Assembly (NCBI GenBank): GCA_028821605.1
Contig: JAPPFM010000056.1
Span: 135,466-199,465, forward strand
DNA from: Candidatus Poribacteria bacterium
GTDB taxonomy: Bacteria > Poribacteria > WGA-4E > WGA-3G
Length of the DNA stretch: 64,000 nt
Direction of reading: 5' to 3'
The position numbers were made by a program, and so were the translations under genes. The notes under the pieces are model-generated. The model saw nothing but the letters and a program-made list of their open reading frames with translations, did no database searches and was not told the origin of the DNA. Every line of letters starts with the position of its first letter. Within the stretch, counting starts at the first letter, position 1. Of the stretch, positions 2-61,487 are shown one piece after another.

Positions 2-2431
2 TCAAACGTAGAAACCCTTGTGACGGAGGAGTACATAAATAACCTCACCTTAGATGTATCGGGTGGGAAGATGTATTGGATAAACTCGAATCGGGACGCA
101 GGTACGTCTAAAATCCGTCGTGCCAACCTCGACGGTTCAAACGTAAAAATCCTTAGGGCGGAAGATCAGTACACAGCAGATCTTGTGTTGGATGTTTCGG
201 GCGGGAAGATGTACTGGATAGATTGGGACAGAGAGAACGACGAACCGTGGGGCGTTTTTCATCGTCGTCCTAAAATCCGTCGTGCCAACCTTGATGGCTC
301 AAATGTAGAAACTCTCAGGGCGGAGAAGGAGTTCGTCGTAGAGGCTCTTACCTTAGATATATCAAGCGGGAAGATGTATTGGCTCTCTGGCTATGATAGG
401 GACATCCATCGTGCGAACCTTGACGGATCAAACGTACAAACCCTTGTTGTGTCGGAAGCGGAGCCACATCAACTTGCCTTGGATGTTGCAGGCGGGAAGA
501 TGTACTGGATAGGCCGGGAGGGCCCGGGGTTATATAAAATCTTTCGTGCCAACCTCAACGGCTCAAATGTAGAAACCCTTGTGAAGCAAAGGTACACAAG
601 GGATGTCACCTTGGATGTCGCAGCTGGGAAGATGTATTGGATAGGTGTGGACGGAGGTGCCGATAAAATCCGTCGTGCGAATCTTGACGGATCAAACATT
701 GAGGACATTATCACAGCACCGGTAGAATACTTTGTCTTAATTCCCTCTCAAACACCGATGAACGCTCCATCGATGCCAGTGGTCTCGAAAAAACCTGAAG
801 TCGATACGCAACAGGTCCACGTCGATGCAGCCGATAGACCCCCGATGTATTGGATAAACACAACGGCAGGCACACTCCACCGGCTCGTCGATGCAGAAGT
901 GGAAAATCTCCTGCCAAGCGTCCGAAACGCTAATAGTCTCACCCTGGATGTCGTCAACGACAAGCTCTACTGGACAGAGAAGACCAGTAATACAACCGGC
1001 AGGGTTCGCCGCGCCGATCTGGATGGATCAAACGTTGCGTCGGTTCGGGAGTTCAACAACGTCCCCCTCGGTATTGCGGTTGATACATCAAATGGCAAGT
1101 TGTATGTGACCAACTCCCGTGGCAAAGTGCAGCGGTTAAACCTTGACGGGTCTAACTACGAGTGGAACTTCATCGTCAATTTGGATTCGCCGAAAGGGAT
1201 CGCTGTTGATGCTGCGGGGCGTAAAGTCTATTGGACAGAGCAGACAGGTGAGAATACTGGTAGGATTCGCCGCGCCGATCTGGATGGATCAAACGTTGCG
1301 TCGGTTCGGGAGTTCAACAACGTCCCCCTCGGTATTGCGGTTGATACATCAAATGGCAAGTTGTATGTGACCAACTCCCGTGGCAAAGTGCAGCGGTTAA
1401 ACCTTGACGGGTCTAACTACGAGTGGAACTTCATCGTCAATTTGGATTCGCCGAAAGGGATCGCTGTCGATGCTGCGGGGCAGAAGCTCTATCTCACAAG
1501 TTCTGACGGTAAAATCAGCCGTCGAAACTTGAGCGGTGGCGGTTCTCAAGTAGTCGTTGAAGGGTTAGTCAGCCCGGGGAATATAGTGCTGAACAACAGT
1601 ATCACAGCACCCGAGAAGTCCTCAACCTCGGAGACACCCGCCTCTAAAAATAAGTACGATGTGAATGGAGACGGCACGGTCAATGATGCAGATGCCAGCC
1701 TGGTCTCTGAAGCGATCAGCAACGGGTCAACGGATGCCAAATATGATGTCAACAACGATGGAAAAGTCAACTTTGATGACCTGAAACTCGTCTTGGACAA
1801 TCGGGATCGTGACCCTTACGATGTCAATGGAGATGGCACGGTCGATGACACGGACGCGAGTTTGGTCTCTGAAGCGATCAGCAACGGGTCAACCGATGCC
1901 ACATACGATGTCAACGACGATGGAAAAGTCAACTTCGATGACCTGAAACTCGTCTTAGACAATCGGGCAGAAGGGGCTGCGGGGGCACCGCTCATCGTTG
2001 GAAACCTGAAGTTGAATGCGGCACAGATTGCTCGCATTGAAGCACAGATCAATCTGCTGCTCGCAACAGGTGACCAGTCACCCGCAGCGATGCGGACGCT
2101 GGTTTACCTGCAGCAGCTCCTCACAACAGCACGTCCAGAGGAGACGCAGTTGCTTGCCAACTATCCGAATCCGTTCAACCCTGAAACTTGGATACCCTAT
2201 CAGTTGGCAGAGCCCGCCGAGGTCACGGTGTCGATCTATGCGATAGATGGGAAGTTAGTTCGGACGTTGGCGTTAGGGCACCAAGCGGCTGGCATCTATC
2301 AGTACCGGAATCGTGCGGCGTATTGGGATGGCAGAAATGATGTAGGTGAATCTGTAGCGAGTGGTGTGTATTTCTATACCCTAACCGCAGGCGATTTCAC
2401 TGCCACGCGAAAGATGCTAATTTGGAAATAG
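2..2431 (+). CDS. 5'-partial secreted YWTD (LDL-receptor class B type) beta-propeller repeat protein with two dockerin modules and a C-terminal Por_Secre_tail / FlgD-Ig-like sorting domain
   Basis: The ORF is open from the window edge (frame 2) to the stop at 2431, so the start lies upstream. It has at least 8 blades carrying KMYWI/KLYWT and RANLDGSNV motifs. Two dockerin type-I pairs follow (DVNGDGTVNDADASL / DVNNDGKVNFDDLKL). The C-terminus is NYPNPFNPETWIPYQL...SGVYFYTLTAGDF...KMLIWK. Confidence 0.75.
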   Translation, partial: SNVETLVTEEYINNLTLDVSGGKMYWINSNRDAGTSKIRRANLDGSNVKILRAEDQYTADLVLDVSGGKMYWIDWDRENDEPWGVFHRRPKIRRANLDGSNVETLRAEKEFVVEALTLDISSGKMYWLSGYDRDIHRANLDGSNVQTLVVSEAEPHQLALDVAGGKMYWIGREGPGLYKIFRANLNGSNVETLVKQRYTRDVTLDVAAGKMYWIGVDGGADKIRRANLDGSNIEDIITAPVEYFVLIPSQTPMNAPSMPVVSKKPEVDTQQVHVDAADRPPMYWINTTAGTLHRLVDAEVENLLPSVRNANSLTLDVVNDKLYWTEKTSNTTGRVRRADLDGSNVASVREFNNVPLGIAVDTSNGKLYVTNSRGKVQRLNLDGSNYEWNFIVNLDSPKGIAVDAAGRKVYWTEQTGENTGRIRRADLDGSNVASVREFNNVPLGIAVDTSNGKLYVTNSRGKVQRLNLDGSNYEWNFIVNLDSPKGIAVDAAGQKLYLTSSDGKISRRNLSGGGSQVVVEGLVSPGNIVLNNSITAPEKSSTSETPASKNKYDVNGDGTVNDADASLVSEAISNGSTDAKYDVNNDGKVNFDDLKLVLDNRDRDPYDVNGDGTVDDTDASLVSEAISNGSTDATYDVNDDGKVNFDDLKLVLDNRAEGAAGAPLIVGNLKLNAAQIARIEAQINLLLATGDQSPAAMRTLVYLQQLLTTARPEETQLLANYPNPFNPETWIPYQLAEPAEVTVSIYAIDGKLVRTLALGHQAAGIYQYRNRAAYWDGRNDVGESVASGVYFYTLTAGDFTATRKMLIWK
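1005..1490 (+). repeat. near-identical 2 x 261-bp tandem duplication (87 aa, two YWTD blades) inside the CDS
   Basis: The nucleotide string ttcgccgcgccgatctggatggatcaaacgttgcgtcggttcggg...gattcgccgaaagggatcgctgt occurs twice head to tail. The protein segment TGRVRRADLDGSNVASVREFNNVPLGIAVDTSNGKLYVTNSRGKVQRLNLDGSNYEWNFIVNLDSPKGIAVDAAG is repeated. Confidence 0.8.
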
Positions 2432-20693: not shown

Positions 20694-20742
20694 TGAAACA
20701 TTCCTCCTTAGATTCTAATTTCCTTCTCTGGAATCTTCAAAG

Positions 20743-22421: not shown

Positions 22422-22439
22422 GGCTGTCTCCTGTTAATG

Positions 22440-23294: not shown

Positions 23295-23441
23295 TACGAT
23301 CTCCTGTTTCAGAGCATACGGGACAGATGAAAGAATTTCCGAACCGCCGCAAAAATCATAGCATATTTTGGGAAAAAGTCAAGAAAAATCAGAACGGTTC
23401 AATTACCGCGAGGTGCCCTTACACAAAAGCGGATACGTGCG

Positions 23442-25586: not shown

Positions 25587-25728
25587 AGGTGAGTTTCGAC
25601 TTCCTTTAGGATAGGTTGTGAACGGTGTAAACAGAATGAGATACTTGAAAAACGTCAATCTCAGCATGCTGAATAGCGTGCTTATCGCCTATGCAGCCAC
25701 ACAAGCGTTTGCGAACAACGCTGAAACC

Positions 25729-32186: not shown

Positions 32187-32282
32187 AGGCGAGATTCCTT
32201 CGCCTCTACACAAAAGCGCGAAAAGCCAAACAACGTGCGGCTTGGATTCTCTAACGGATCGGTGTTCATAAAATCTATCTGA

Positions 32283-32306
32283 CTGACCGCAAGGAAAATT
32301 AAAAAT
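32283..32306 (+). promoter_or_regulatory. copy 1 of conserved leader motif (C)TGACCGCAAGGAAAATTAAAAAT immediately 5' of the alpha-E gene
   Basis: Shares about 22-27 nt with the leaders at 33418-33450 and about 40683-40711. Confidence 0.45.
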
Positions 32307-33293
32307 ATGCTGAGTCGCGTTGCTGAATCAATTTATTGGATGAGTCGCTACATTGAACGTGCCGAGAATGTCGCCCGTTTTGTCGATGTCAACCTGCGTT
32401 TAATCCTTGATGCACCCGTCGGTATGCAGGCACAGTGGGAGCCTCTTGTTGCGACCACAGGCGATGATGAAGTGTTTGCTGAGCGTTACGGAGAGGCATC
32501 ACGTGAAGCCGTCATCCGATTTTTAGCGTTTGACACTGAAAATCCAAATTCAATTGTCTCTTGCTTGCGGGCTGGTCGAGAAAACGCGCGGTCGATACGC
32601 GAAAATATATCGTCAGAGATGTGGGAGCAGCTGAACGATGCCTACTTACTGGTAGCAAACACTTCCGAACAGTGGGCGATGGCAGAACCGCATGAATTCT
32701 TTACAGAGATCAAACTCGCATCACACCTCTTCATGGGACTCACAGATAATATCATGTCCCATAGCGAAGGGTGGCACTTCTGTCAGTTGGGACGTTTGAT
32801 TGAACGCGCGGACAAAACCTCGAGAATCGTTGATGTTAAATATTTTATTCTCCTTCCGTCTATCTGGGATGTGGACACACCTTTTGACGACATTCAATGG
32901 GGGGCACTTTTACACTCTGCCAGCGGTTTTGAAATGTATCGACGTACCTATGGACTCATCTCTCCGGACGATGTCGTCGCTTTTTTGCTGTTAGATCGTG
33001 AATTTCCACGGTCGGTTCTCTACTGTCTCTCCAAGGCGGAGGAGTCACTGCACGCGATATCCGGTACCCCGTTGGAAACCTTCTCCAATCCAGCAGAGCA
33101 GCGTTTGGGGCAGCTCCGTTCCGAATTTGCGTATGCCCAAGTCAAACAGGTACTCACGTCGGGTTTGCATGAATTCCTTGATGCTTTCCAAACCAAGCTG
33201 AACTTAGTCGGTGATGATATTTACAAGACATTTTTTGCCTTGCGACCTGTCAATGGAGAACCCGCTGCGGAACAGGAACAGTCTCAGTTGTGA
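32307..33293 (+). CDS. alpha-E domain protein (partner of CP ATP-grasp)
   Basis: The N-terminus LSRVAESIYWMSRYIERAENVARFVDVN is the alpha-E signature. Confidence 0.8.
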   Translation: MLSRVAESIYWMSRYIERAENVARFVDVNLRLILDAPVGMQAQWEPLVATTGDDEVFAERYGEASREAVIRFLAFDTENPNSIVSCLRAGRENARSIRENISSEMWEQLNDAYLLVANTSEQWAMAEPHEFFTEIKLASHLFMGLTDNIMSHSEGWHFCQLGRLIERADKTSRIVDVKYFILLPSIWDVDTPFDDIQWGALLHSASGFEMYRRTYGLISPDDVVAFLLLDREFPRSVLYCLSKAEESLHAISGTPLETFSNPAEQRLGQLRSEFAYAQVKQVLTSGLHEFLDAFQTKLNLVGDDIYKTFFALRPVNGEPAAEQEQSQL

Positions 33294-33417
33294 GTTATTT
33301 AAAGAGAAGGGGCGGGAAACCTGTCCCCTACGGAGCATCTAATTCTCCTCTTAAACGGAAAGCAAAGCATCGCGCCGGGACGGATATACGGAGTGGGATC
33401 TTATCAGTAAAATTCCG

Positions 33418-33450
33418 CTAACCGAACCGCAAGGAAATATTAAAAAAACA
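33418..33450 (+). promoter_or_regulatory. copy 2 of conserved leader motif CTAACCGAACCGCAAGGAAATATTAAAAAAA
   Basis: Immediately 5' of the long transglutaminase gene. Confidence 0.45.
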
Positions 33451-33453
33451 GAT

Positions 33454-36400
33454 ATGTCAATTCGTGTAGGAATCAACCACAAATCTCTATATCGCTATGA
33501 CCGGCTCGTCGGCTTATCGCCACATATTTTTCGGTTGAGACCCGCGGTCCACTGTCGCACACCGATTGAGGCGTATTCGCTCAAAATTGAACCCGAAGAA
33601 CACTTCATTAATTGGCAGCAAGATCCGTTTGGCAATTATCAAGCCCGTGTCGTTTTTCTACAACCCACATACGCCTTGTCGGTTGAGGTCGATCTTATTG
33701 CGGATATGACCGTCATCAATCCCTTCGATTTTTTCCTTGAAGCGAGTGCTGAACATTACCCATTTTTCTATGAGGCGCAGCTCAAACAAGAACTCACACC
33801 GTTCCTTGAAGTCAAAGAAAACGGACCCTTGTTGACAGCGTGGTTGGCAGATATTCCTCGGACGAAGAAGAAATTCAATGACTTCCTTGTTGACATCAAC
33901 AGATCTTTGCGGGAACATATAAAATACACGATTCGGATGGAACCAGGGGTCCAGTCCTGCGAAGAGACTTTAGGAAAGCAAATCGGTTCATGCCGGGACA
34001 CAGGGTGGCTGCTTGTCCAGATTTTGCGACATCTCGGTTTGGCTGCCCGTTTTGTTTCTGGTTACCTTGTACAACTTGTCGCTGATCAAAAACCTGTGAC
34101 AGGTCCCGCCGGTCCTCCGCAGGACTTCACCGATTTGCACGCTTGGTGCGAGGTTTACGCACCCGGAGCAGGGTGGATAGGATTAGATCCGACATCCGGC
34201 TTACTTGCAGGAGAAGGACATATTCCATTGGCGTGTGTGCCAGACCCGGTGAGTGCCGCGCCTGTCACTGGCTACACAGATCCATGCCAAACAGAATTTA
34301 CCTATAGCAACACTGTCCAACGTATCTACGAAGACCCGCGCGTGACGAAACCCTACACGGAAACACAGTGGGCTGATATTAATGCGCTCGGTCAACAGGT
34401 TGATGAGGATATAATTCAGAATGATATCCGATTGACAATGGGCGGTGAACCTACTTTCGTGTCAGTGGATGACACAGAGGGTGCGGAATGGGATACGGAA
34501 GCGGATAGCCCGAGGAAAAGAGAATTAGGTGCCGGACTCTTACAACGTTTACGCGATAGTTTCGGACCCAGCGGTGCACTCTACTACGGACAAGGGAAAT
34601 GGTATCCGGGTGAACCTTTACCGCGATGGAAATTCGGGTGTTTTTGGCGCAAGGACGGGGTGCCCGTGTGGCGGAACGATAAACTTCTCGCTGAACCTCA
34701 CAAGGATTATGGCTTCGGTTCCCGAGACGCAGAGCGATTTACACATCGCCTCGCCGAATGCTTGAAACTCTCACCAGACCAGATAGTTCCAGCTTATGAA
34801 GATGCACTCTTTTTCCTTTGGACAGAAGACAGGCTTCCGGTTAACATTAATCCGCTTGAATTTGACTTCAAGGAGGCTTCCGAACGACATCGTCTCGCGC
34901 AACTTCTGCAAACAGAGACACTCGGTGAACCCGTTGGCTACGCCCTACCGTTACGCTGGGATCTTGTGGACGATACTTGGGAGAGTTGTGTATGGAATTT
35001 CCGGGGTGGACAGATGTTCTTAACGCCCGGTGATTCACCCATCGGGTTGCGTCTGCCACTGGAGTCTATACAATGGGTGCCACCGAAACAGCGGGAGATG
35101 GTTTATGAGCGCGACCCGCTTGAACCGCGTGAGGAGAGTTTAGATACAGATAGTGAAGACAGACTCCCAACAGAGAACAGAGAGGCGGAAGCAATTTTTC
35201 ACACTGCCTTATGTATTGAACCGCGCGAGGGACGATTGCACATTTTTATTCCACCCTTGACGCACTTAGAGCACTATCTGCGACTCCTTGAAGCAATTGA
35301 AGCGACCGCTGAAGCCTTGGGTATGCCGGTAATTCTTGAAGGATATGAGGTCCCATACGATTCCCGAATTGAATCTCTGAATGTGACACCCGACCCAGGG
35401 GTCATTGAGGTAAACATTCATCCAGCGAAAAATTGGGATGAGGTGGTACATAACACCACAACGCTCTATGCACAAGCAAGGTTAGCTGGACTTAGTGCTG
35501 AAAAATTCATGTTGGATGGTCGGCATACTGGCACGGGAGGCGGCAATCATATTGTGATTGGTGGAGCCGCCCCGGCGGATAGCCCGTTTTTGCGAAAGCC
35601 TCACTTACTGCGAAGCCTTATCACCTATTGGCAGCATCATCCCGCTTTGTCTTATCTCTTTTCCGGTACATTCATCGGACCGACGAGTCAAGCTCCTCGC
35701 GTGGATGAGGGGCGCGATGAACAACTCTATGAACTTGAGGTCGCTTTTGAGCAGATGCCTGATGAAATGGGTGATGAGGAAGATGTTCCACCTTGGCTGG
35801 TAGACCGGCTGCTGAGACACCTCATGGTAGATCTCACCGGTAATACGCATCGTGCGGAGTTCTGTATTGATAAACTTTATTCACCCAATGCAGCGAGTAG
35901 AAGACTCGGATTGCTTGAACTACGGGCTTTTGAGATGCCGCCGCACGCCCAGATGAGTGTCGTGCAGATGCTGTTGGTGCGCGCATTAATCGCCAAATTC
36001 TGGAAGACACCCTACAAAGGCAAACTGGTACGCTGGGGGACAGAATTACACGATCGCTTCATGCTCCACCACTACGTCCACGCCGATATACAGGAGGTCA
36101 TTACTGAACTCCAAGCAGCAGGCTATTCGTTTGAAATGGCGTGGCTTGAACCGTTTTTTGAATTCCGTTTTCCGAAGTTGGGCACTACAAATATACAAGA
36201 TATTGAATTGGAACTAAGGATGGCAATTGAACCGTGGCATGTACTCGGTGAGGAGGTAACCCGGACGGGGACCTCGCGTTTCGTTGATTCTTCTGTTGAG
36301 CGGCTCCAAGTGAAGGTCAGTGGATTGACAGATTCCCGCTACATCGTCACATGCAATGGACGACGCTTGATACTTCACAACACTGGCACACATGGAGAAT

Positions 36401-36777
36401 ATGTCGGTGGGGTGCGCTATCGTGCGTGGCAACCGCCATCAGCGTTGCATCCTACAATCGGTGTCCACTCACCGCTCGTGTTTGACATCATCGACACATG
36501 GAACGGGCGCGCAATTGGTGGCTGTACCTATCACGTTTCCCATCCGGGTGGGCGACACTATGACACCTTCCCAGTCAACGCCTACGAGGCGGAAGCCCGA
36601 CGTGTAAGTCGGTTCGGGGCTGATGGACATACACCAGGCGTTATTCAACCGCGCCCGTCAGCACCTGCAGCTGGACATTTTCTGGCTGAGGGGAATCCGC
36701 CTGGTCCGATAGATGTCCCACCAGAAGAGACAAATGCTGAATATCCTTACACTTTAGATCTCCGCCGAATTCTTTAG
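33454..36777 (+). CDS. long transglutaminase-family protein (Bact_transglu_N + transglutaminase core + DUF2126-like C-terminal region; Rv2566-like)
   Basis: N-terminus MSIRVGINHKSLYRYDRLVGLSPHIFRLRPA. Cys-containing core GSCRDTGWLLVQILRHLGLAARFVSGYL. 1107 aa. Confidence 0.8.
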   Translation: MSIRVGINHKSLYRYDRLVGLSPHIFRLRPAVHCRTPIEAYSLKIEPEEHFINWQQDPFGNYQARVVFLQPTYALSVEVDLIADMTVINPFDFFLEASAEHYPFFYEAQLKQELTPFLEVKENGPLLTAWLADIPRTKKKFNDFLVDINRSLREHIKYTIRMEPGVQSCEETLGKQIGSCRDTGWLLVQILRHLGLAARFVSGYLVQLVADQKPVTGPAGPPQDFTDLHAWCEVYAPGAGWIGLDPTSGLLAGEGHIPLACVPDPVSAAPVTGYTDPCQTEFTYSNTVQRIYEDPRVTKPYTETQWADINALGQQVDEDIIQNDIRLTMGGEPTFVSVDDTEGAEWDTEADSPRKRELGAGLLQRLRDSFGPSGALYYGQGKWYPGEPLPRWKFGCFWRKDGVPVWRNDKLLAEPHKDYGFGSRDAERFTHRLAECLKLSPDQIVPAYEDALFFLWTEDRLPVNINPLEFDFKEASERHRLAQLLQTETLGEPVGYALPLRWDLVDDTWESCVWNFRGGQMFLTPGDSPIGLRLPLESIQWVPPKQREMVYERDPLEPREESLDTDSEDRLPTENREAEAIFHTALCIEPREGRLHIFIPPLTHLEHYLRLLEAIEATAEALGMPVILEGYEVPYDSRIESLNVTPDPGVIEVNIHPAKNWDEVVHNTTTLYAQARLAGLSAEKFMLDGRHTGTGGGNHIVIGGAAPADSPFLRKPHLLRSLITYWQHHPALSYLFSGTFIGPTSQAPRVDEGRDEQLYELEVAFEQMPDEMGDEEDVPPWLVDRLLRHLMVDLTGNTHRAEFCIDKLYSPNAASRRLGLLELRAFEMPPHAQMSVVQMLLVRALIAKFWKTPYKGKLVRWGTELHDRFMLHHYVHADIQEVITELQAAGYSFEMAWLEPFFEFRFPKLGTTNIQDIELELRMAIEPWHVLGEEVTRTGTSRFVDSSVERLQVKVSGLTDSRYIVTCNGRRLILHNTGTHGEYVGGVRYRAWQPPSALHPTIGVHSPLVFDIIDTWNGRAIGGCTYHVSHPGGRHYDTFPVNAYEAEARRVSRFGADGHTPGVIQPRPSAPAAGHFLAEGNPPGPIDVPPEETNAEYPYTLDLRRIL

Positions 36778-36778
36778 G

Positions 36779-36843
36779 GGTTATCGGTCATCGGTTAAAG
36801 AGGTAGTTGATTTTACAAAACCACCTCTTAACTGACAACTAAT
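36779..36843. repeat. short member of MITE-like palindromic element family (arms GTTATCGGTCATCGGTTAAAGAGGT / ACCTCTTAACTGACAACTAAT)
   Basis: Inverted arms around an 18-nt centre, between the transglutaminase stop and the next ATG. Confidence 0.55.
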
Positions 36844-36860
36844 TGGATAAAGACAAAGAA

Positions 36861-39587
36861 ATGCAACGCGCAGATGTAAAAGATTGGACGGTAATCGGTG
36901 ATAGTTATAACACCATCGAATCGTCCCGTGGACGTACAGGCAATGTTCCCGGTAAGCAGATCGATGAGATGTTGGGTGCGGATAGACAAATAAATCCGCA
37001 CTGGCACGCCTTCATGCAGGCACTCGACACGTTAGGACTCGCGGAGATGGAATCTCGCGACAAAGAGGTGCAACGTCTGCTTCGAGAGAACGGTGTCACC
37101 TACGTCTTACACGGGGAACAGCAGGGACATCGCCCGTGGGAATTAGATCCCATTCCACTAATTATCTCAAAAATAGATTGGGAAACGATCTCTGACGGAC
37201 TTACACAACGAGCGGAGCTGCTAAACCTAATTTTGGCGGATCTCTATGGTGAGCGAACCTTAATCAAAGATGGGTTGATACCACCAGAAGTGATTTATGC
37301 GCATGCTGGATTTTTGCGAGCGTGTGTCGGGCTTGTTCCGTTTGGATTCCCTTTCCTCTTGAGTTATGCCGCCGATTTGGCGCGCGGACCGGACGGCGAA
37401 ATGTGGATACTCGGTGATCGGGCACAGGCACCATCAGGTGCAGGCTACGCGCTCGAAAATCGCACCGCCCTCGCGCGCGCACTACCGAACCTCTTTGGTG
37501 AAGTCGGCGTTCATCGACTCTCTTTTTTCTTCCGCGCACTACAAAACAGCGTCGTGGACCTACAACACCAACTTGAAACTGCTTCCCGTATTGCGCCGCA
37601 TCAAACAGACAACCCACAGGTCGTTGTACTGACCCCTGGTCCCCTCAACGAAACTTATTTTGAACACGCGTATCTCGCAAACTACCTCGGTTACACCTTA
37701 GTCCAAGGTGATGACTTGACGGTGTGGGATGGGCGCGTTTGGTTGAAGTCGCTTGATGGCTTGCGCCCTGTCGATATTATTTTGCGCCGAGTGGATGATG
37801 TTTTTTGTGATCCGTTGGAACTCCGACAGGATTCAAGACTTGGGGTCGCAGGTTTGCTGGAAGCGATTCGACAGGGAAACGTGGTTGTGATAAATCCGCC
37901 GGGCAGCGGTGTTTTAGAAAATCCGGGCTTGATGCCGTTCCTGCCGAACATCGCAAAACGGTTGTTGGGTGAAGACCTACGTCTCCCCTCTGTCGCAACA
38001 TGGTGGTGTGGGCAACCGAAGCAGCGCGACTATGTGTTGGCAAACCTTAAAAAGTTAGTCGTCAAACCTATTCACCGTCAACCGGGCGGACGACCCCTGT
38101 TTGGAAGTGAACTCGATAGTAGTCAACTTGATGCACTTCGCGCTCGGATTAATGCCAAACCGCATCTCTATGTCGGGCAGGAGCATGTTCACTTCTCCAC
38201 AACACCCTCGCTGATTGAAGGGAAACTTGAACCCCGCCGTGCGATTCTTCGTAGTTTTTTGTTCGCAGAGAGAGATGGCTACACCGTGATGCCAGGTGGG
38301 CTTACCCGTTGTGCAGGCGAGAAGGGTGAACTGACAATCTCAATCCAAGATGGTGGAGTTAGTAAAGACACCTGGGTACTTGCCTCTGAACCTGAACCGC
38401 ATGTCAGTTTATGGCAGCGACGTATCACCGAGGTGATGGGTCCTGCTTCTACGAGTCCGGCTGGATTGTCGAGTCGTGCAGCTGAGAATCTGTTCTGGGT
38501 AGGTCGCTATGCGGAACGGGCAGAGGGACAAGCGCGGCTCCTGCGGATTATGTTGAATAAGGTCAAGATGGGTAGGATGGGCTTGGAGACTTCCCACTTA
38601 GCACAAGGACTACCTTCCGCGCTCTTTACGGAGACCTTCGGTGACGATGAAAGGGAAGTATCGGAACTCGCGTATCTCCACAGCATGCTCCGCTCCCTGA
38701 CCGGTTTAACTTCATCGCACCCGGGTTTCGTCAGAAAAGACGAACAGTCGTTAGAAGATGAGCTTCTTTCCATCATGCTGGACGTGGAAAACACCGGCAG
38801 CTTGGTGTCTACGCTTCAGGCACTTCTCACCGCGGCTTACGCAGTCAGAGACCGCTGGTCTACCGACACATGGCGTGTGATGAACGGCATTGAAGATCTA
38901 TGTGCTGCCCTTGAAAAAAGCGTTCCCGGAGATGGAGATGCAAGTCCACAGATATTGACGGACCTCGTGCTGCAAGAAGCGGAATTAGCCTCACTGGATC
39001 AACTCATGATCTTTCTTTCAGCACTGAGTGGGCTTAATGCCGAAAACATGACGCAAACGATCGGTTGGATTAGTTTGGATATGGGACGGCGTATTGAACG
39101 CGCACTGCTTCTCATGGTGCTTTGCCGTTCGAGTCTTGTCGCCGTTCAGGACGACTGGGTTGAATATATGTTACTTGAATCTGTCCTTGCTGCCGCCGAG
39201 AGCCTGATCACTTACCGCAGCCGCTATCGTACAACACTCCACTTTCCAACTGTCTTAGAGTTGCTACTTCTTGACGAGAACAACCCGCGCTCGCTCTTAT
39301 ATCAGTTGAAACGGCTTGAGGAACAGATACGTATCCTCCCAAGGGAAAAACTCGGTTACCGGCTTAGCGAGGAGGAACAACTCATTCTGGAGGCTTTAAC
39401 GCAGTTGCAGCTTTCTAATACAATTGACCTCGCCGAGCGTTCGGAGCACACAACACAACGTAAGGGGTTAGAAAAACTCCTTGTCCGCCTTGCACAGATA
39501 CTGGTTGACATTTCCGATGTCCTCACGCAGACCTATTTTAGCCACGTCCAAAGACCGCAGCAGTTGATTACAACCGATAACCTTTAG
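36861..39587 (+). CDS. CP type-2 ATP-grasp fused to alpha-E domain (Rv2567-like)
   Basis: The N-terminal half parallels ORF 30732 (IDEMLGADRQINPHW...). The C-terminal half carries AENLFWVGRYAERAEGQARLLRIML (alpha-E). 36843 is an alternative start. Confidence 0.75.
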   Translation: MQRADVKDWTVIGDSYNTIESSRGRTGNVPGKQIDEMLGADRQINPHWHAFMQALDTLGLAEMESRDKEVQRLLRENGVTYVLHGEQQGHRPWELDPIPLIISKIDWETISDGLTQRAELLNLILADLYGERTLIKDGLIPPEVIYAHAGFLRACVGLVPFGFPFLLSYAADLARGPDGEMWILGDRAQAPSGAGYALENRTALARALPNLFGEVGVHRLSFFFRALQNSVVDLQHQLETASRIAPHQTDNPQVVVLTPGPLNETYFEHAYLANYLGYTLVQGDDLTVWDGRVWLKSLDGLRPVDIILRRVDDVFCDPLELRQDSRLGVAGLLEAIRQGNVVVINPPGSGVLENPGLMPFLPNIAKRLLGEDLRLPSVATWWCGQPKQRDYVLANLKKLVVKPIHRQPGGRPLFGSELDSSQLDALRARINAKPHLYVGQEHVHFSTTPSLIEGKLEPRRAILRSFLFAERDGYTVMPGGLTRCAGEKGELTISIQDGGVSKDTWVLASEPEPHVSLWQRRITEVMGPASTSPAGLSSRAAENLFWVGRYAERAEGQARLLRIMLNKVKMGRMGLETSHLAQGLPSALFTETFGDDEREVSELAYLHSMLRSLTGLTSSHPGFVRKDEQSLEDELLSIMLDVENTGSLVSTLQALLTAAYAVRDRWSTDTWRVMNGIEDLCAALEKSVPGDGDASPQILTDLVLQEAELASLDQLMIFLSALSGLNAENMTQTIGWISLDMGRRIERALLLMVLCRSSLVAVQDDWVEYMLLESVLAAAESLITYRSRYRTTLHFPTVLELLLLDENNPRSLLYQLKRLEEQIRILPREKLGYRLSEEEQLILEALTQLQLSNTIDLAERSEHTTQRKGLEKLLVRLAQILVDISDVLTQTYFSHVQRPQQLITTDNL

Positions 39588-39626
39588 TCCCGGGGAGCAC
39601 CTCACAGTCTCCATAGGATTACTGCG

Positions 39627-40508
39627 ATGAATTACAAGATCGTCCATAAAACTGAATACAGCTATACCCATCCCGTGAACCTCTGCTATAACGAGGCGCG
39701 TTTGAGTCCCCGGAGTTTTGCTCATCAGGATTGTAGCGAGAGTCAGTTCGTTGTGGACCCCGAACCTAAAGAGTGCCGAGAACGTCAGGATTTCTTTGGA
39801 AACACCGTTTACTATTTCACAATCCAGCAGCCTCATAATCAACTCACCGTTAGGGTTACGAGTCGTGTGAACGTCAAAGACAGAGAGATGCAACTGAATT
39901 TCGCCAAGCACCTCACTTGGGAGGAGGTGCGACAGCAGTTGCAAACGGATCAGAATTCGGGAATTCTGGAGATGCGGCAATATGTTCTTGACTCTCCAAT
40001 GGTTCCGATGATGCCCGAACTCCACGCTTATGCTGAAAAGTCGTTTACCAAAAGAAAACCGCTGCTCGAAGCTGTTAACGATTTGACCACTCGTCTCTAC
40101 ACCGATTTTACCTACGATCCGGGCTTCACGACAATCGCAACACCGTTGGCTGATGTCATAGAGCATCGTCGGGGTGTTTGTCAAGATTTTGCGCACCTCG
40201 GTATCGGGTGTCTACGTGCGTTGGGGCTTGCTGCGCGTTACGTCAGCGGCTATATTGAGACTGTCCCGCCACCGGATCAGGAGCCGTTAGCGGGTGCCGA
40301 TGCCTCCCATGCGTGGTTTTCTGTTTATCTCCCGCAGCTTGGCTGGGTAGATTTCGATCCGACAAATAACCAGATACCAGCAGATCAGCACATCACAATC
40401 GCATGGGGAAGAGACTATGCGGACGTAACGCCGCTGAAGGGTGTTGTCTTTGGGAGTGGCACACATGAATTATCTGTCTCGGTGGATTGTAAACGGGAAA
40501 ATTTTTAA
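39627..40508 (+). CDS. transglutaminase-family protein (Bact_transglu_N + core; Rv2569c-like)
   Basis: MNYKIVHKTEYSYTHPVNLCYNEARLSPRS, RGVCQDFAHLGIGCLRALGLAARYVSGY, HAW...DPTN. Confidence 0.8.
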   Translation: MNYKIVHKTEYSYTHPVNLCYNEARLSPRSFAHQDCSESQFVVDPEPKECRERQDFFGNTVYYFTIQQPHNQLTVRVTSRVNVKDREMQLNFAKHLTWEEVRQQLQTDQNSGILEMRQYVLDSPMVPMMPELHAYAEKSFTKRKPLLEAVNDLTTRLYTDFTYDPGFTTIATPLADVIEHRRGVCQDFAHLGIGCLRALGLAARYVSGYIETVPPPDQEPLAGADASHAWFSVYLPQLGWVDFDPTNNQIPADQHITIAWGRDYADVTPLKGVVFGSGTHELSVSVDCKRENF

Positions 40509-54883: not shown

Positions 54884-55591
54884 ATGAAAAGAAAAATAGG
54901 CACTGCCCCGACATTCGTCTATCCCGAATCAGACGGAGAACCGATGGCAGAAACTCCGAAACATCAGCAGGTGATGATAGATTGCATGGATATCCTACGA
55001 AACCATTTCCATGGGATCCGAGATGTGTATATCGGTGGGAACATGCTACTGTATTATGAAGAGGGGAATCCTCGGAAGAGCGTCTCCCCGGATGTCTTCA
55101 TGGTTCGTGGGCTGTCGAAAAAAGAACTCCGAACATATAAAACCTGGGAACAACCCGCCACCCTTGATTTTGTGTTAGAAGTTGCCAGCCCGAGTACGTA
55201 TACGAGAGACTTCAACGAGAAGATGGAGATATATGCCAAGATTCTGCGTGTCAAAGAGTATTATATCTATGACCCCTATCATGAAATTGAGCCCTATTTC
55301 GTTGGGTTCCGGCTTGTGGGTGAAACTTATGAGGAGATAGCATTCGTGAACGCACGACTCCCGTCTTCAGTGTTAGGTTTGGAGTTGGGTGAGCATGAGG
55401 GTTTGCTGCGTTTATATGACCCTGTTAAGTCTGCGTGGTTACTTACTTCTCAAGAACGCGTAGGAGAGGCGGAAACCCGCGTAGCACAAGAATCCCTGGC
55501 ACGACAGGAGGCGGAAACCCGTGTGCAACACGCCGAAGCCGAACTTGAAAAACTGCGTGCAGCACTCCAACGTTTAGAAACAACCAAATAG
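54884..55591 (+). CDS. Uma2 family (DUF820) protein with C-terminal coiled-coil tail
   Basis: TFVYPESDGEPMAETPKHQQ..., PDVFMV, coiled-coil EAETRVAQESLARQEAETRVQHAEAELEKLRAALQRL. This is the third Uma2 paralog in the window. Confidence 0.75.
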   Translation: MKRKIGTAPTFVYPESDGEPMAETPKHQQVMIDCMDILRNHFHGIRDVYIGGNMLLYYEEGNPRKSVSPDVFMVRGLSKKELRTYKTWEQPATLDFVLEVASPSTYTRDFNEKMEIYAKILRVKEYYIYDPYHEIEPYFVGFRLVGETYEEIAFVNARLPSSVLGLELGEHEGLLRLYDPVKSAWLLTSQERVGEAETRVAQESLARQEAETRVQHAEAELEKLRAALQRLETTK

Positions 55592-55595
55592 GAAA

Positions 55596-58500
55596 TTGAT
55601 GGTGAAAATCGGCAAATACCTCCCTATAGTGATCCTAATATGCGTCGGATTAGCGTTTGCAACAGCAGATGCCCAAGAAAACCTTGCACAACAGGTGTCC
55701 GCTATTTTTCAGCAAAACTGCTTGAATTGTCATGGACCCTCCGGTTCCTTTAAGGAAGCACTCCTGCTTGACCGCACCGCGCTTATTGATACGCAGGTCA
55801 TCATCCCAGGAAACCCAGAAAACTCAGAATTCTATAAACGACTCCTTGGACCGACTGAGAAGGGTCCGCAAATGCCGCTCAATCTACCACCGCTCTCACC
55901 AGAAGCCATTGAAACGATTGCCCGTTGGATTACCGCAGGCGCGCCAGATTGGGATGTGCAGCACGACATCAATTTCATAACCACAGATACAATACTCAAT
56001 ACCATCCGAAACCATCTAAAGTCGCTGGATCCGTTTGATCGTCCCTCCGCACGCTATTTTACAATGACGCATCTCTATAATGCCGGTGAAAGCCCTGAAA
56101 CTCTCAGCGACTATCGGATCGCGCTCTCTAAACTGATAAATAGCCTCTCGTGGAAGTTTGAGATCACGAATCCAACACCTATTGATGAAGCACAAACAAT
56201 CTTCCATATTGACCTACGGCGTTACGAATGGAATAATATCAGAACCGATGTGTGGACACAAATTGAGCAAGTATATCCGTACAACATTGTGTTTGATCCA
56301 GAAACACAAGCCGGTCTCCTTGAAAAACTGACACACCTGCAGACTGAAATGGGCAGCACAGTGCCGTTTGTCCATGTCGATTGGTTTCTTACGACCGCGT
56401 CGTTGCCACCACTCTATCACGACATTTTAGGTCTTCCACAAACAGACCGTGTGTTAGAGGCACAACTGGAGGTAAATGTTGCGAGCAATATCAGGAACGC
56501 CCCGGGGATAAATGTCTGGCGTGCGGGTTTCAACGATTCGGGTGTCTCCTCAAACAACCGCGTTGTGGAACGCCATACGTCTCGGTATGGTGCGTATTGG
56601 AAAAGTTACGACTTTGCTGGGAGCGTAGGTTCACAGAATATCTTTACGCACCCACTTGATTTCACACACGATGGTGGCGAAATTATCTTCAATCTCCCCA
56701 ACGGATTGCAGGCGTACTTGCTGGTTGACGTTAATGGTAACCGGCTGAACGACGCACCAATTGACATCGTTAGGAACCTTGCTGCGAGCAATCCGACAGT
56801 CCGGAACGGTCTCTCGTGTATTGGGTGCCATACGCAAGGCATGAAGAAGTTTGAAGATAGTGTGCGAGTGGCGATTGAACAAGATGACAACCCGCCGTAT
56901 AACAAAGAACAGGCACTACGCCTCTACGCTAAACAGTCAGTGCTTGATAATCTGGTTGCAAAAGATACACTAAGGTTTCAGCAGGCATTGGAAAAGATTG
57001 GCGGTCCGTTTGCGGATGATGCATCCAGACAACGCTTCTTCAAGCAACATGAAAATGAACCCATCCAACGGTTTCATGAATCGTTTCAATCACCCCTAAA
57101 TGCCTCGGACGCTGCTGCCGCTGTTGGATTGGAAACAGAAGCATTCCTCACACAGATCCGTGAGAAACAGAGTTTAAAAAACTTAGGACTACAAACGCTC
57201 ATAGATGTGAAGGGCACCGTGAAACGGGATGCATGGACATCTAACTTTGACGATGTAATTTCTGCGTTGAATACCCCTGATAGCATCCTTCCGCCAGTCG
57301 TGCAGCGTCCAGAACGCATTCCGGGTGCTGGTGTATACATTCCCGACCCGAACCTCCGCGCGGCAATTGCCGAAGCACTCGGCAAAGCACCTGGTGATCC
57401 GATTACGGTAGAAGATATGGCGATGTTGGCTGATCTGGACGCAAGGAATTATGATGAGCCGCGCAAGGAAAATATTAACAATTTAACGGGACTTGAGTTC
57501 GCAGTGAATCTCAAATTTCTACATATTGGTGGTAATTCAGTATCAGATTTATCGCCCCTTGCGGGGCTAATAAAACTAGATTTCTTAGATGTCCAGGATA
57601 ACTTAATATCAGATATATTGCCGCTTAAAGGATTGACTCGTCTAAAAGATTTAGTTCTTACTGATAACGTGATATCTGATTTTTCTCCCCTTATGGAGTT
57701 AACAACATTAAAAGAGGTATGGATTTCTGACAGCCCGGCATTTGACCTGTCACTACTTGGAAGATTGATTAACCTTGAGGGTGTGCATGCTTGGGATGTC
57801 CCCATAAAAGATCTATCCCCTCTTGCAGGATTGACAAAATTGAGATGGTTAGACTTTGGTCGTATTCCAATATCAGATCTTGCACCGTTAGCGAACCTAA
57901 CAAACCTGAGAAAACTGATATTTTACGATTGCGGCATAGAAGATATCTCGTCTCTGGCAGGATTGAAAGAGTTGAGATCTCTTATAATTCCTCACAACGC
58001 GATCTCAGATCTCTCGCCGTTGGCGGGGTTAACTCGTTTAGAAACTTTACATATCGTCAATAACCAAATATCAGATGTATCGCCCTTGGCAGGGTTAACC
58101 AACTTAGGCGAACTAAACCTCCGCAACAACTCAATAACAGATTTCTCACCTTTAGAGGCACTTTCCCAAAATACAAATATACTTACTGGTGAAGTGGCTA
58201 TACCCGATCTAAACCTCCGCGATGCAATTGCAGAGGCACTCGGTAAAGGTGATACTACAGTTGTTTCAATTACCGCTGAGGAAATGGCTACATTGACAAG
58301 TCTTGTTGTCAATGACAGAGGTATTCAAGATTTGATAGGACTTGAGTTTGCTATAAATTTGGAAAACCTATGGTTTGAACACAATCAGGTATCTGACCTA
58401 TCTTCTATCGCTAAATTAACCAAACTGCGCGAGTTACGGTTTGTAAGCAATCAGGTATCTGACCTATCCTCTATTGCTAAATTAACCAAACTGCGCGAGT

Positions 58501-61487
58501 TAAGGATTGATCACAATCCTATATCCGACTTATCGCCTATTGCAGGTTTCACGCAATTAGAAGTACTATCAATAAACGAGTTCCCACTATCTGACATATC
58601 ACCACTTTCAGGATTAATTAACTTGAAAACCTTTCACTCTTGGGGCAGCCCGATCGTTGACATGTCACCGCTCGTCAACTTATCGAAACTGGAAACACTT
58701 GATCTCTGCGGTGCCAAATTAGCAAATATACCATCTTTAGATAACTTAAAAAGTTTGAAAACACTGTATCTTGTTGATTGCAATATTTCGGATGTATCGT
58801 CCTTGTCAAGTTTAAGAGGTTTAGAACATTTTACAAAACTGAATCTCCATAGAAACAACATTATCTCAGACATATCGCCTTTAGCAGTGCTAACTAACCT
58901 GAAATGGCTAAATCTTTCATGGAATAATATCTCGGATGTATCTGCTTTAACAGACCTAACCAATCTGAAATGGCTAAGCCTTGAATTAAACAATGTTTCT
59001 GACGTATCTCCTTTAGCAAAGTTAACTAACTTGGAATGGCTAAATCTTACCAAGAATCCAATACCAGATTTCTCCGCTTTAGCGGTTCTTTCACAAAGTG
59101 CAAATATTCTTACTGGCGAGGTTGTTATCCACGATCCGAACCTCCGCGATGCAATTGCAGAGACACTCGGTAAAGGTGATACTACAGTTGTTTCAATTAC
59201 CGCTGAGGAAATGGCTACATTGACAAGTCTTGTTGCCAATAACAGAGGCATTGAAGATTTGACGGGGCTTGAGTTTGCAACAAATATAAACAGTCTGGAC
59301 CTCAATGGCAATCAGATTAGTGACATTTCACCCTTATCAGAATTGGTTAACTTGTCTCATTTAGAGCTTCGCCGTAACCAGATTAGCGATATCTCAGCCC
59401 TCACAGGATTAACCAACATAGTTTCTTTAAATATACGAGTCAATCCACTATCTGACATCTCATCCCTCGCGAATCTAATGAAAATGGACTTTTTAGAGGT
59501 TACTGATACCAACGTTTCTGACCTGTCACCGCTAGCAGAATTGGATAATCTGCGCGAATTTAAATCTTGGCACAGTCCTATATCTGACCTCTCTCCATTG
59601 GCACATCTAACCGTTATAGATGTATGTGGTGCCCCCATATCGGATCTCTCGGCACTGACAAACTCAACAAATTTGAGAGAGTTGTATCTTGTCAGAAACA
59701 ATATCTCAGATGTTTCATCCTTAGCGGGGTTAACAGGTTTAATACGTCTGAGTCTCGAGGGGAACAAAATATCGGATATATCGCCGCTTGTGGGTTTAAC
59801 GAACTTGAAATCACTAGCACTTCAGCACAACTCAATATCCGATTTTTCGCCTTTGGAACGATTAACTAAGACAACAGCTATATCTCGAGCCTTCAATCCT
59901 GGTTCACCCACAGGGGGTGCGAAGATAGAGGGACCTTGGCTATGGGTGACGGTCCCGGGAGATCACCTTGACAGCAGCACGGATTTACTCGCAGAAGCTA
60001 GTGGAGGTGACGTAACAGAACAGAACATTGCCATCAATGGTGTATCAGAAGGAATGTCTGTGGGACGCAATGTCTGGACAACTGGCAAGATTGCGCCTGA
60101 AGGACGCGCTAACATCACCGAAATGCTCAATTCTATCGGCATGGGAAACTATAGAGATAGTGGCAACCGTATCGTCTATGGTTCTGTAACCTTGGATTCA
60201 CCGCGTGAACAGAAGACAACAATGTTCGTGGGAAGCGATGACGGAATAAAGGTCTGGCTCAACGGTGAATTGGTTCACCAAGCACTTTTTTGGCATAGAG
60301 CTGAAGATTACCAGTATTTTTTCCCTGTCACCTTGAAACGTGGAAAAAATGTCTTGTTGGTCGCAGTTGACGGCAGGGGTTGGAACTCGAACAACGGTTT
60401 TTTTGGATTTGAAGTGGGTACAGAATACACTCTGCCAAACCCGCGTGTCAGATATATCTTCTCTGAGCCTTCAATCCATTCAGGTGATACCTTCACCCTC
60501 CAAATTGAAGCAGAAGATGTTTACGATTTAGCGGGATGGCAATTTAATATTGCGTTCGATTCTACCCCACTCGAAGCCGTTGAAGTCAACGAAGGCGATT
60601 TCCTCAAGACAGATGGTGGAACGACCTTCTTTCAGCAGGGTACAATTGATAACACTATAGGCAAAATTACCAAACTCAGTTCAGCAAGACTCAGCGAAGA
60701 CGGGGTCAGCGGTAAAGGTACGCTTCTGTCGGTGACATTTACAGCAAAAACAGCTGGACAAACGCAGTTGAAACTCGAAAATTTTCAACTCGCTGCTATC
60801 ACCGGTGTATCTATCCCTGCGGGTCCACATGAGGTTGTTATCACTGTAGAAGGGCAACTCGCTACTGGAGATGTGAATCGAGATGGACAGGTAAATATCC
60901 TGGATATGGTGCTTGTCGCTCGACACTTCGGGAAAACCGTGTCTGCCAACTCGGAAATTGACATGAATGGTGATGGTGTTGTCAATATCCAGGACCTTAT
61001 CATCGTGGCGCAACATCTCGGTGAATCAACCACCGCTGCATCACCTTCCGTCACTGCAGCAATAGACAACGGCGAACTAACGCCTGCGATGATACAAGCC
61101 TGGATCACGCAAGCGCAAATTGAAAACGACGGTTCCATCGCCTTCCAACAGGGCATCGCCAATCTTGAACGACTTTTGGCACTATTTATCCCAGAAGAAA
61201 CCGCCTTACTTCACAACTATCCAAACCCGTTCAACCCAGAGACGTGGATACCCTATCAACTGTCCGAACCGGCTGAGGTTACCTTGCGTATCTATGCTGT
61301 GAATGGCAGTTTGATCCGAACATTAGCATTAGGACAAATGCCCGCCGGCATCTACCAAACCCGCACCCGTGCCGCATATTGGGACGGCAAAAATAAGGTA
61401 GGCGAATCGGTCGCGAGTGGTGTCTATTTTTACACACTAACTGCAGGCGACTTTAACGCCACGAAAAAAATGTTGATAAGGAAATAG
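55596..61487 (+). CDS. giant (1963-aa) secreted multidomain protein: planctomycete-type cytochrome-c (PSCyt1-like, CxxCH) module, three leucine-rich-repeat blocks, beta-sandwich domain, cohesin-like domain, dockerin, Por_Secre_tail-like C-terminus
   Basis: Signal peptide. CLNCHGPSG...IIPGNPENSEFYKRLLGP...QMP (PSCyt1 pattern) and a second CIGCHT. About 37 22-aa LRRs (L.L..N.ISD.SPLA.LT.L). TFTLQIEAEDVYDLAGWQFNIAFDS...EGDFL (cohesin-like). DVNRDGQVNILDMVLVARHFG / DMNGDGVVNIQDLIIVAQHLG (dockerin). C-terminus NYPNPFNPETWIPYQL...SGVYFYTLTAGDFNATKKMLIRK. Confidence 0.8.
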   Translation: MMVKIGKYLPIVILICVGLAFATADAQENLAQQVSAIFQQNCLNCHGPSGSFKEALLLDRTALIDTQVIIPGNPENSEFYKRLLGPTEKGPQMPLNLPPLSPEAIETIARWITAGAPDWDVQHDINFITTDTILNTIRNHLKSLDPFDRPSARYFTMTHLYNAGESPETLSDYRIALSKLINSLSWKFEITNPTPIDEAQTIFHIDLRRYEWNNIRTDVWTQIEQVYPYNIVFDPETQAGLLEKLTHLQTEMGSTVPFVHVDWFLTTASLPPLYHDILGLPQTDRVLEAQLEVNVASNIRNAPGINVWRAGFNDSGVSSNNRVVERHTSRYGAYWKSYDFAGSVGSQNIFTHPLDFTHDGGEIIFNLPNGLQAYLLVDVNGNRLNDAPIDIVRNLAASNPTVRNGLSCIGCHTQGMKKFEDSVRVAIEQDDNPPYNKEQALRLYAKQSVLDNLVAKDTLRFQQALEKIGGPFADDASRQRFFKQHENEPIQRFHESFQSPLNASDAAAAVGLETEAFLTQIREKQSLKNLGLQTLIDVKGTVKRDAWTSNFDDVISALNTPDSILPPVVQRPERIPGAGVYIPDPNLRAAIAEALGKAPGDPITVEDMAMLADLDARNYDEPRKENINNLTGLEFAVNLKFLHIGGNSVSDLSPLAGLIKLDFLDVQDNLISDILPLKGLTRLKDLVLTDNVISDFSPLMELTTLKEVWISDSPAFDLSLLGRLINLEGVHAWDVPIKDLSPLAGLTKLRWLDFGRIPISDLAPLANLTNLRKLIFYDCGIEDISSLAGLKELRSLIIPHNAISDLSPLAGLTRLETLHIVNNQISDVSPLAGLTNLGELNLRNNSITDFSPLEALSQNTNILTGEVAIPDLNLRDAIAEALGKGDTTVVSITAEEMATLTSLVVNDRGIQDLIGLEFAINLENLWFEHNQVSDLSSIAKLTKLRELRFVSNQVSDLSSIAKLTKLRELRIDHNPISDLSPIAGFTQLEVLSINEFPLSDISPLSGLINLKTFHSWGSPIVDMSPLVNLSKLETLDLCGAKLANIPSLDNLKSLKTLYLVDCNISDVSSLSSLRGLEHFTKLNLHRNNIISDISPLAVLTNLKWLNLSWNNISDVSALTDLTNLKWLSLELNNVSDVSPLAKLTNLEWLNLTKNPIPDFSALAVLSQSANILTGEVVIHDPNLRDAIAETLGKGDTTVVSITAEEMATLTSLVANNRGIEDLTGLEFATNINSLDLNGNQISDISPLSELVNLSHLELRRNQISDISALTGLTNIVSLNIRVNPLSDISSLANLMKMDFLEVTDTNVSDLSPLAELDNLREFKSWHSPISDLSPLAHLTVIDVCGAPISDLSALTNSTNLRELYLVRNNISDVSSLAGLTGLIRLSLEGNKISDISPLVGLTNLKSLALQHNSISDFSPLERLTKTTAISRAFNPGSPTGGAKIEGPWLWVTVPGDHLDSSTDLLAEASGGDVTEQNIAINGVSEGMSVGRNVWTTGKIAPEGRANITEMLNSIGMGNYRDSGNRIVYGSVTLDSPREQKTTMFVGSDDGIKVWLNGELVHQALFWHRAEDYQYFFPVTLKRGKNVLLVAVDGRGWNSNNGFFGFEVGTEYTLPNPRVRYIFSEPSIHSGDTFTLQIEAEDVYDLAGWQFNIAFDSTPLEAVEVNEGDFLKTDGGTTFFQQGTIDNTIGKITKLSSARLSEDGVSGKGTLLSVTFTAKTAGQTQLKLENFQLAAITGVSIPAGPHEVVITVEGQLATGDVNRDGQVNILDMVLVARHFGKTVSANSEIDMNGDGVVNIQDLIIVAQHLGESTTAASPSVTAAIDNGELTPAMIQAWITQAQIENDGSIAFQQGIANLERLLALFIPEETALLHNYPNPFNPETWIPYQLSEPAEVTLRIYAVNGSLIRTLALGQMPAGIYQTRTRAAYWDGKNKVGESVASGVYFYTLTAGDFNATKKMLIRK

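Follow-up and report, generated by a model that had tools for sequence, protein, structure and literature searches.

The window analysed here, a 64,000-nt stretch of contig JAPPFM010000056.1 from a Candidatus Poribacteria bacterium, carries on its + strand an uninterrupted open reading frame (ORF) at 55596..61487, whose product joins a two-haem head to leucine-rich repeats (LRR), a beta-sandwich, a cohesin, a dockerin and a sorting-type tail. The first possible start of the ORF is TTG 55596, while ATG 55599, preceded by an AGGAA box, is the very next codon and the likely start, giving a gene at 55599..61487 that encodes 1962 amino acids (aa) plus the stop. The product read from this ATG is an exact match to NCBI MDE0469567.1 (Ca. 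Poribacteria), labelled merely "LRR domain-containing protein", and the long ORF claimed in a preceding sequence-only reading is thus real. The domain inventory of that reading was correct as far as it went: PSCyt1, cohesin, dockerin and the FlgD_ig/TIGR04183 tail all exceeded their curated cut-offs, while aa ~110–565 (the remainder of the haem module) and aa 1431–1625 (the beta-sandwich) had been left without assignment, and both the complete ~540-aa two-haem module with its putative P460/c'-beta-like domain and the recombining multi-copy family had been overlooked. In the domain scan that it had proposed, cohesin reached 38.2 bits (cut-off 24.1) and PSCyt1 22.9 bits (cut-off 22); with both assignments passing, the first observation stands. 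The N-terminus, MVKIGKYLPIVILICVGLAFATADA followed by QE, is a Sec-type signal peptide as read directly from the translation (aa 1–25; 55599..55673), with K3 and K6, a hydrophobic core and A-D-A before Q26. All modules described below lie on the same + strand.

The head contains the two CxxCH haem motifs that had already been recognised, CLNCH (aa 41–45) and CIGCH (aa 407–411), which are invariant in alignments of 35, 65, 16 and 90 relatives. With 9 Cys and 36 His in the protein, the composition-expected number of CxxCH motifs is 0.00076 per protein, and two motifs were reached in 0 of 20000 shuffles. The haem 1 motif (C41-L-N-C44-H45; 55719–55733) belongs to a class-I/PSCyt1-type cytochrome c head (aa ~30–115; 55686..55943), which combines the CxxCH with a downstream Met and a profile match (26.5 bits when scanned alone); M92 of the invariant M92-P93 is the likely axial ligand of this haem together with His45. 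Next come a mostly helical middle part (aa ~116–299; 55944..56495), with short strands at aa 151–155, 201–205 and 257–259 and the invariant motifs RYFxxTHLYNAG, NSLSW and DWF..A..PPLYH, then a haem domain predicted to be a beta-sheet of cytochrome P460/c'-beta-like fold (aa ~300–415; 56496..56843), which includes the haem 2 motif (C407-I-G-C410-H411; 56817–56831), and, finally, a C-terminal helical part (aa ~416–565; 56844..57293). The beta-sheet domain has a set of invariant polar residues (R308, R321, E324, R325, Y333, W334, D338, E361 and R382), with H326 nearly invariant (at least 90%), and the head motifs SGVSxNNRxxERH, YWKSYDF, HDGGExIFNLPNGLQ and NGxSCxxCHxxGM are strictly or almost strictly conserved in close relatives as well as in distant ones. 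The many invariant charged residues near haem 2 suggest a specific pocket and not a simple electron carrier.

No Pfam or NCBIfam model covers the region aa ~110–580. A homologue search with aa 1–584 returned >3000 matches, the best named of them being Ca. Poribacteria hypothetical proteins, and a head profile run against 1.84 billion representatives found 2009 matches at E ≤ 1e-30 and 4281 at E ≤ 1e-10. The distant relatives, at 36–43% identity, are proteins of Planctomycetes (Gemmataceae, Planctomycetaceae), labelled by their sources as "c-type cytochrome domain-containing" or "mono/diheme cytochrome c family", so that the earlier description of the head as Planctomycetes-style was right. These PSCyt1 proteins have in common with the poribacterial one the whole ~540-aa two-haem module, including both CxxCH and the key motifs, but the fusion partners differ: TPR, WD40, FGE-sulfatase, NPCBM, FHA, HEAT or peptidase domains in Planctomycetes, and LRR, beta-sandwich, cohesin, dockerin and C-terminal domain (CTD) in Poribacteria. 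Since the head occurs in so many Planctomycetes domain combinations, it is an autonomous and widely used module of ~540 aa. Membership in the fatty-acid cis/trans isomerases (CTI, PF06934) was considered and rejected. CTI likewise has an N-terminal haem c domain, and aa ~78–193 are in register with profile positions 76–173 of 692, but only ~14% of the profile is covered, with no match over the second-haem region of the head; the score was 11.5 bits for this protein (cut-off 25) and no more than 20.9 bits for any of the ten re-scanned members, with a best E of 9.3e-05 among all 35.

The sequence of the head did not by itself place it in the cytochrome P460/c'-beta superfamily, whose internal sequence similarity is itself very low: no membership was apparent by sequence or profile similarity, a PDB sequence search with the head matched generic cytochrome c domains only, a PDB search with a profile of aa 285–435 gave no match, and Pfam scans of the members of this profile found no cytochrome family. 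Structure prediction was more informative. An AlphaFold model from a 35-sequence alignment was unusable (predicted local distance difference test, pLDDT, 45.6), while a 90-sequence alignment including the Planctomycetes relatives gave a pLDDT of 89.7 and a predicted template modelling score of 0.86. The predicted order in this model is a cytochrome c head made of helices, a region that is helical for the most part, a beta-sheet with its strands between aa 306 and 383, the C407xxC410H411 helix of haem 2 and a helical bundle. Foldseek against the PDB found no match to the model. The structure matches were headed by the dihaem iron oxidase FoxE (5mab_A, score 7.7), which fits the predicted class-I head, and continued with cytochrome c'-beta (8brk_A, rank 2, 6.5; 7s5o_A, rank 4, 5.6) and cytochrome P460 (6hiu_B, rank 3, 5.9; 6amg_A, rank 6, 5.0; 2je3_A, rank 8, 4.7). 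Each of the five P460/c'-beta matches aligned 96–103 of 135–158 residues and, because the model has a single substantial beta-sheet, they would fall on the domain preceding haem 2. The head thus probably carries a P460/c'-beta-like haem site; members of this superfamily bind NO, CO or NH2OH at a five-coordinate haem, and a 2025 review treats the fold as confined to two small families. A universal Lys–haem cross-link of the P460 type is unlikely in the head family, because the candidate K335 is either K or R among distant relatives.

The head is followed by three capped LRR blocks, the number given in the sequence-only reading, with 10 + 11 + 9 repeats of 22 residues, i.e., ~30 in total instead of the ~37 claimed there (LRR_4, 302 bits; cut-off 27). 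Block 1 (57339..58199) begins with an internalin-like cap (IPDPNLRAAIAEALGK...) and has 10 repeats, block 2 (58200..59126) has a cap and 11 repeats, and block 3 (59127..59888), with a cap and nine repeats, lies inside a tract that diverges from the orthologue described below. The blocks are mutually 45–53% identical and have DNA-level repeats in common. The G+C content drops to 41% at 58001–60000 (LRR blocks 2–3) from 46–49% around it; the drop probably reflects the Leu/Asn/Ile/Ser-rich composition of the repeats, but it partly overlaps the divergent tract.

A conserved domain of ~195 aa (aa 1431–1625; 59889..60473) comes next, which has no Pfam model and is the most variable module of the protein, with 37–66% identity across the family. 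A profile built from 11 members gave weak but consistent matches, all below threshold, to galactose-binding-like beta-sandwiches: sialate O-acetylesterase 9ega (E 0.04), BetaGal_ABD2 in five of the 11 members (best E 0.0016), RhaB_D2 in five and the GH2 N-terminal domain in two. The domain is, therefore, probably a galactose-binding-like beta-sandwich by profile similarity. An assignment to PA14 was discarded: it came from a lone weak match to RsgI3, and searching with the profile gave it no support, favouring galactose-binding-like domains instead.

The cohesin module (PF00963; aa 1621–1745; 60459..60833) matches Pfam over aa 1627–1723, at profile positions 11–108 of 139, and precomputed PF00963 matches exist also on relatives of the protein. 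It directly adjoins a type-I dockerin (aa 1746–1815; 60834..61043) with both canonical Ca-binding loops, DVNRDGQVNILD and DMNGDGVVNIQD (Dockerin_1, PF00404, 41.7 bits; cut-off 22.9), and the co-occurrence of both modules in one chain, as the sequence-only reading had it, is thereby upheld. Among 67 complete relatives the identities of cohesin and dockerin co-vary (r = 0.78), while the correlation of either with the adjacent beta-sandwich is -0.1 to -0.3 and that with the head among paralogues is ~0.0. The two modules thus behave as a matched unit, either by cognate co-evolution or by cassette linkage, and self- or hetero-oligomerisation through them is plausible, with the co-variation as indirect support.

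A conserved helical linker (aa 1816–1865; 61044..61193) leads to the C-terminal beta-sandwich sorting-type domain (61194..61484; NYPNPFNP...KKMLIRK). The sequence-only reading had called this end Por_Secre_tail-like, which holds in part: FlgD_ig (30.8–35.7 bits; cut-off 27) and TIGR04183, the type A sorting domain of type IX secretion systems (T9SS), pass (28.5 bits; cut-off 23; aa 1874–1960 of 1962), while Pfam Por_Secre_tail (PF18962; cut-off 27) is borderline, with 27.4 bits for the domain alone and, below the cut-off, 20.5 bits for the whole protein. A second protein with such a tail is cut by the window start (2..2431, + strand). It combines YWTD/LDL-receptor-B and NHL propellers with three dockerins (nt ~1631–1954) and a tail (nt 2138–2428) that is 80% identical to that of the studied protein, and from these features it is a second eukaryote-like, dockerin-bearing client of the putative sorting and docking system.

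The same combination of modules is widespread in the phylum. A genomic locus scan, with one genome per species, confirmed at least 574 loci, and the architecture was counted in the best 79 of them. All 79 belong to Ca. Poribacteria, several genomes being multi-copy and many of the loci lying in chromosome-level assemblies. About 65 of the 79 keep the order head, one to three LRR blocks, beta-sandwich of the aa 1431–1625 type, cohesin, dockerin, linker and CTD, in ORFs of 1347–2313 aa with an occasionally longer gap before the cohesin, and contig ends truncate most of the remainder. The mosaic which the sequence-only reading had regarded as unusual therefore turned out to be the norm: the module order recurs in nearly all of the 79 loci, including closed chromosomes, a syntenic orthologue exists, and TIGR04183 tails on poribacterial eukaryote-like proteins had already been published (PMC3909097). 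On this comparative basis the protein is a member of a large, conserved poribacterial family and no one-off chimera, and as a multi-copy recombining family it appears to be undescribed so far. With the tail alone as query 7893 matches were found, and the short ones nearly all begin inside upstream domains and are, therefore, fragments of long genes. Stand-alone heads and small cohesin–dockerin–CTD proteins were dismissed accordingly, as the tail-only entries are mostly fragments and complete loci have the full-length architecture.

A syntenic block, consisting of a spermidine-synthase/MFS/TPR protein, AspRS, Uma2, the studied gene and an SDF symporter, was found in ~20 species; beyond it, clustering of the flanks of the 79 loci revealed no conserved partner gene. 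The orthologue at locus L001 (1953 aa, three LRR blocks) is 85% identical overall, with a sharply bounded divergent tract: aa 1–1200 are 88–100% identical, aa ~1200–1650 (window ~59200–60550; LRR block 3, beta-sandwich and start of the cohesin) 20–76%, and from aa ~1650 onward identity is again mostly 84–100%, except for one 50-aa window of 74% (aa 1801–1850); outside the tract the gene is ~95% identical to L001. Where this site is syntenic in other species, the flanking genes remain 87–95% identical, the head falls to 60–67% and the number of LRR blocks differs. Read from these alignments, the mosaic pattern suggests segment exchange among paralogues, centred on the presumed ligand-binding parts.

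Some paralogues have extra residues between the beta-sandwich and the cohesin (loci L031, L034, L043, L048 and L068; L037, L039, L047, L062 and L074), amounting to ~150 aa in some and 400–900 in others. Because the tail fragments P0384 and P0389 begin with cohesin-like sequence, a second cohesin may be present in some family members. Uma2 (PF05685, a putative restriction endonuclease) occurs three times in the window (8455–9099, 11138–11992 and 54884–55591), the last copy ending ~7 bases before the start of the big gene, and in several species copies stand on both sides of it (loci L003, L013, L023, L054 and others). This recurrence may just reflect a high-copy family, and a role of Uma2 in recombination at the locus is possible.

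Taken on its sequence features, the protein is an exported haem c protein built on a fixed architecture of seven modules, with a head that Planctomycetes also have. Our explanation, which could as readily prove wrong as right, is that it is most likely displayed on the surface or released, and works as a self-assembling binder with a redox or small-ligand haem head. The Sec-type signal peptide would start export, consistent with the two invariant CxxCH sites, since haem can be attached covalently only outside the cytoplasm. The head would consist of the class-I cytochrome c (haem 1, probably His45/Met92), the helical region, the P460/c'-beta-fold domain (haem 2) and the helical bundle, and it would be the distal functional unit, i.e., a redox or small-ligand (NO, NH2OH or CO-type) binding or converting centre in which haem 1 may relay electrons to a ligand-accessible haem 2. 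The three LRR blocks and the beta-sandwich, the segments that vary and seem to recombine between relatives, would bind host or matrix proteins and glycans through the LRR arrays and the galactose-binding-like domain. The cohesin, standing beside a canonical Ca-binding dockerin with which it co-varies, would link family copies and other dockerin proteins, such as the propeller protein at 2–2431, into a non-covalent surface assembly. The terminal beta-sandwich, T9SS-type-A/FlgD-Ig-like and common to other proteins of the genome, may direct passage through or attachment to the outer membrane by a new or undetected T9SS-like route.

The tail might also make the protein an ordinary T9SS cargo, in which case a divergent or overlooked SprA/PorV/PorU-type T9SS would recognise the TIGR04183 domain, cleave it and attach the protein to the surface. 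This agrees with the TIGR04183 score, with a weak resemblance to the PorU and PorZ tails and to those of other T9SS proteins, with the position of the tail at the extreme C-terminus of a chain that begins with a Sec signal peptide (read from the translation), with its K-rich final strand, with the occurrence of the tail on different cargo-like proteins, and with the NCBI name of relatives, "T9SS type A sorting domain-containing protein". However, no T9SS component (SprA, PorV, PorU, GldK/L/M/N) is encoded among the window ORFs of at least 180 aa, no Por structural genes were found in poribacterial genomes by Kamke et al. (2014; PMC3909097), and FlgD_ig scores the tail at least as well, which leaves conventional T9SS export unlikely. 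A literature search on Poribacteria and T9SS returned nothing relevant. The proteins of Kamke et al. (2014; PMC3909097) are from the same phylum and likewise combine LRR (PF12799) with signal peptides and a C-terminal sorting domain of Por type, the TIGR04183 tails on poribacterial eukaryote-like proteins being noted there, but the words cytochrome, cohesin, dockerin and FlgD are all missing from that paper, and it describes neither the fixed seven-module architecture nor the two-haem head nor the recombining family of many copies.

A location in the periplasm, with the two-haem head acting as a redox enzyme and the LRR, cohesin, dockerin and Ig-like tail tethering or organising it, is quite unlikely. 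Haem c proteins are typically periplasmic, an outer-membrane translocon is not known for the phylum, and the fusions of the Planctomycetes head to TPR, WD40, FHA and FGE-sulfatase domains do not require surface exposure; yet the variation and recombination in the LRR and beta-sandwich and the many copies better fit exposed, ligand-facing proteins than a housekeeping enzyme, and the sorting-type tail is common to unrelated cargo-like proteins.

Cellulosomal scaffoldins and anchoring proteins are the cohesin–dockerin systems of Clostridia. A cellulosome-like scaffold, whose cohesin would recruit dockerin-bearing glycoside hydrolases and whose beta-sandwich would serve as a carbohydrate-binding module, draws on the above-threshold cohesin and dockerin and on the weak resemblance of the beta-sandwich to the sugar-binding domains of GH2, beta-galactosidase and sialate O-acetylesterase. 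Like these systems, the protein combines a cohesin with a Ca-binding type-I dockerin in one exported chain, but here a lone cohesin directly abuts its own dockerin, without CBM3, SLH anchor or catalytic glycoside hydrolase module and without known enzyme partners; the one further dockerin protein of the window is the propeller protein, which is no enzyme, and the host is a Gram-negative-type sponge symbiont. No paper tying Poribacteria to cohesin or dockerin was found among the open-access papers searched, and such a scaffold is improbable.

It is very improbable that the protein is a secreted effector entering sponge cells, where its LRRs would alter phagocytosis or signalling like Yersinia YopM or Listeria internalins. 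The 22-residue LRRs with internalin-like caps do recall Listeria class-1 internalins, and Kamke et al. (2014; PMC3909097) liken poribacterial eukaryote-like repeat proteins to pathogen virulence factors and propose avoidance of host digestion for ANK proteins. However, the blocks here are three in tandem, each capped, the match to the internalin models (NCBIfam NF033189 etc.) is confined to the LRR region and falls far under every cut-off (426.7 bits against 1600 for InlA and 385.8 against 1050 for InlH), and a size of ~2000 residues with two covalent haems, cohesin–dockerin and a sorting tail speaks for a cell-associated assembly. Finally, an assembly or gene-call chimera, conceivable because repeat-rich genes often mis-assemble and many database relatives are fragments, is refuted by the full-length architecture in chromosome-level assemblies, by the syntenic site in ~20 species and by the orthologue L001.

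The surface-displayed or released binder can be carried one step further, to a doubtful but specific proposal: the head might be a third, very large P460/c'-beta branch, with a class-I haem connected to a second one that ligands can reach in a polar pocket, mounted on recombining LRR stalks in a matched cohesin–dockerin assembly and used at the surface for sensing or conversion of sponge- or nitrifier-derived NO or hydroxylamine.

Elsewhere in the window, two consecutive sets of circularly permuted (CP) ATP-grasp, Alpha-E and transglutaminase-like genes occupy 30732–40508 (+), including a DUF2126 amidoligase fusion (33454–36777) and a fused CP-ATP-grasp/Alpha-E protein (36843–39587). Clustered at 19905–27288 (-) are genes for a pair of Laminin_G_3 proteins, a pair of PhyH dioxygenases, a product that weakly matches the TonB-receptor plug, and a sigma factor of the extracytoplasmic function (ECF) type to which a long C-terminal extension is fused; PhyH occurs a third time at 13387–14139, and an FGE-sulfatase protein is encoded at 29171–30466. 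At 15267–19067 (+) stand a 985-aa fusion of an Eco57I-type restriction-modification methylase and, after it, a DUF6602 protein; because these genes adjoin a drop in G+C content to 39% (2-kb bin 18001–20000, overlapping the DUF6602 gene), this may be a mobile defence island.

Marine sponges have Poribacteria among their dominant symbionts. The product of the gene described here is of a broadly known kind, a sponge symbiont's eukaryote-like repeat protein ending in a Por-type tail, in an undescribed variant that joins a presumed host-type binding array (LRR and beta-sandwich), a cohesin–dockerin assembly device and a two-haem head, and its modules are concrete, expressible targets for tests of symbiont–host contact. 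It also sharpens the question raised in 2014 of how T9SS-type-tailed proteins are exported in a phylum in which no T9SS has been found. The head merits study in its own right: its family has thousands of members in Planctomycetes and Poribacteria, with neither a curated model nor a solved relative, and the interest would rise if a ligand-reactive P460-like nature and surface display proved true. A P460/c'-beta-like head would, if confirmed, greatly widen a fold held to be limited to two small nitrogen-cycle or NO-binding families.

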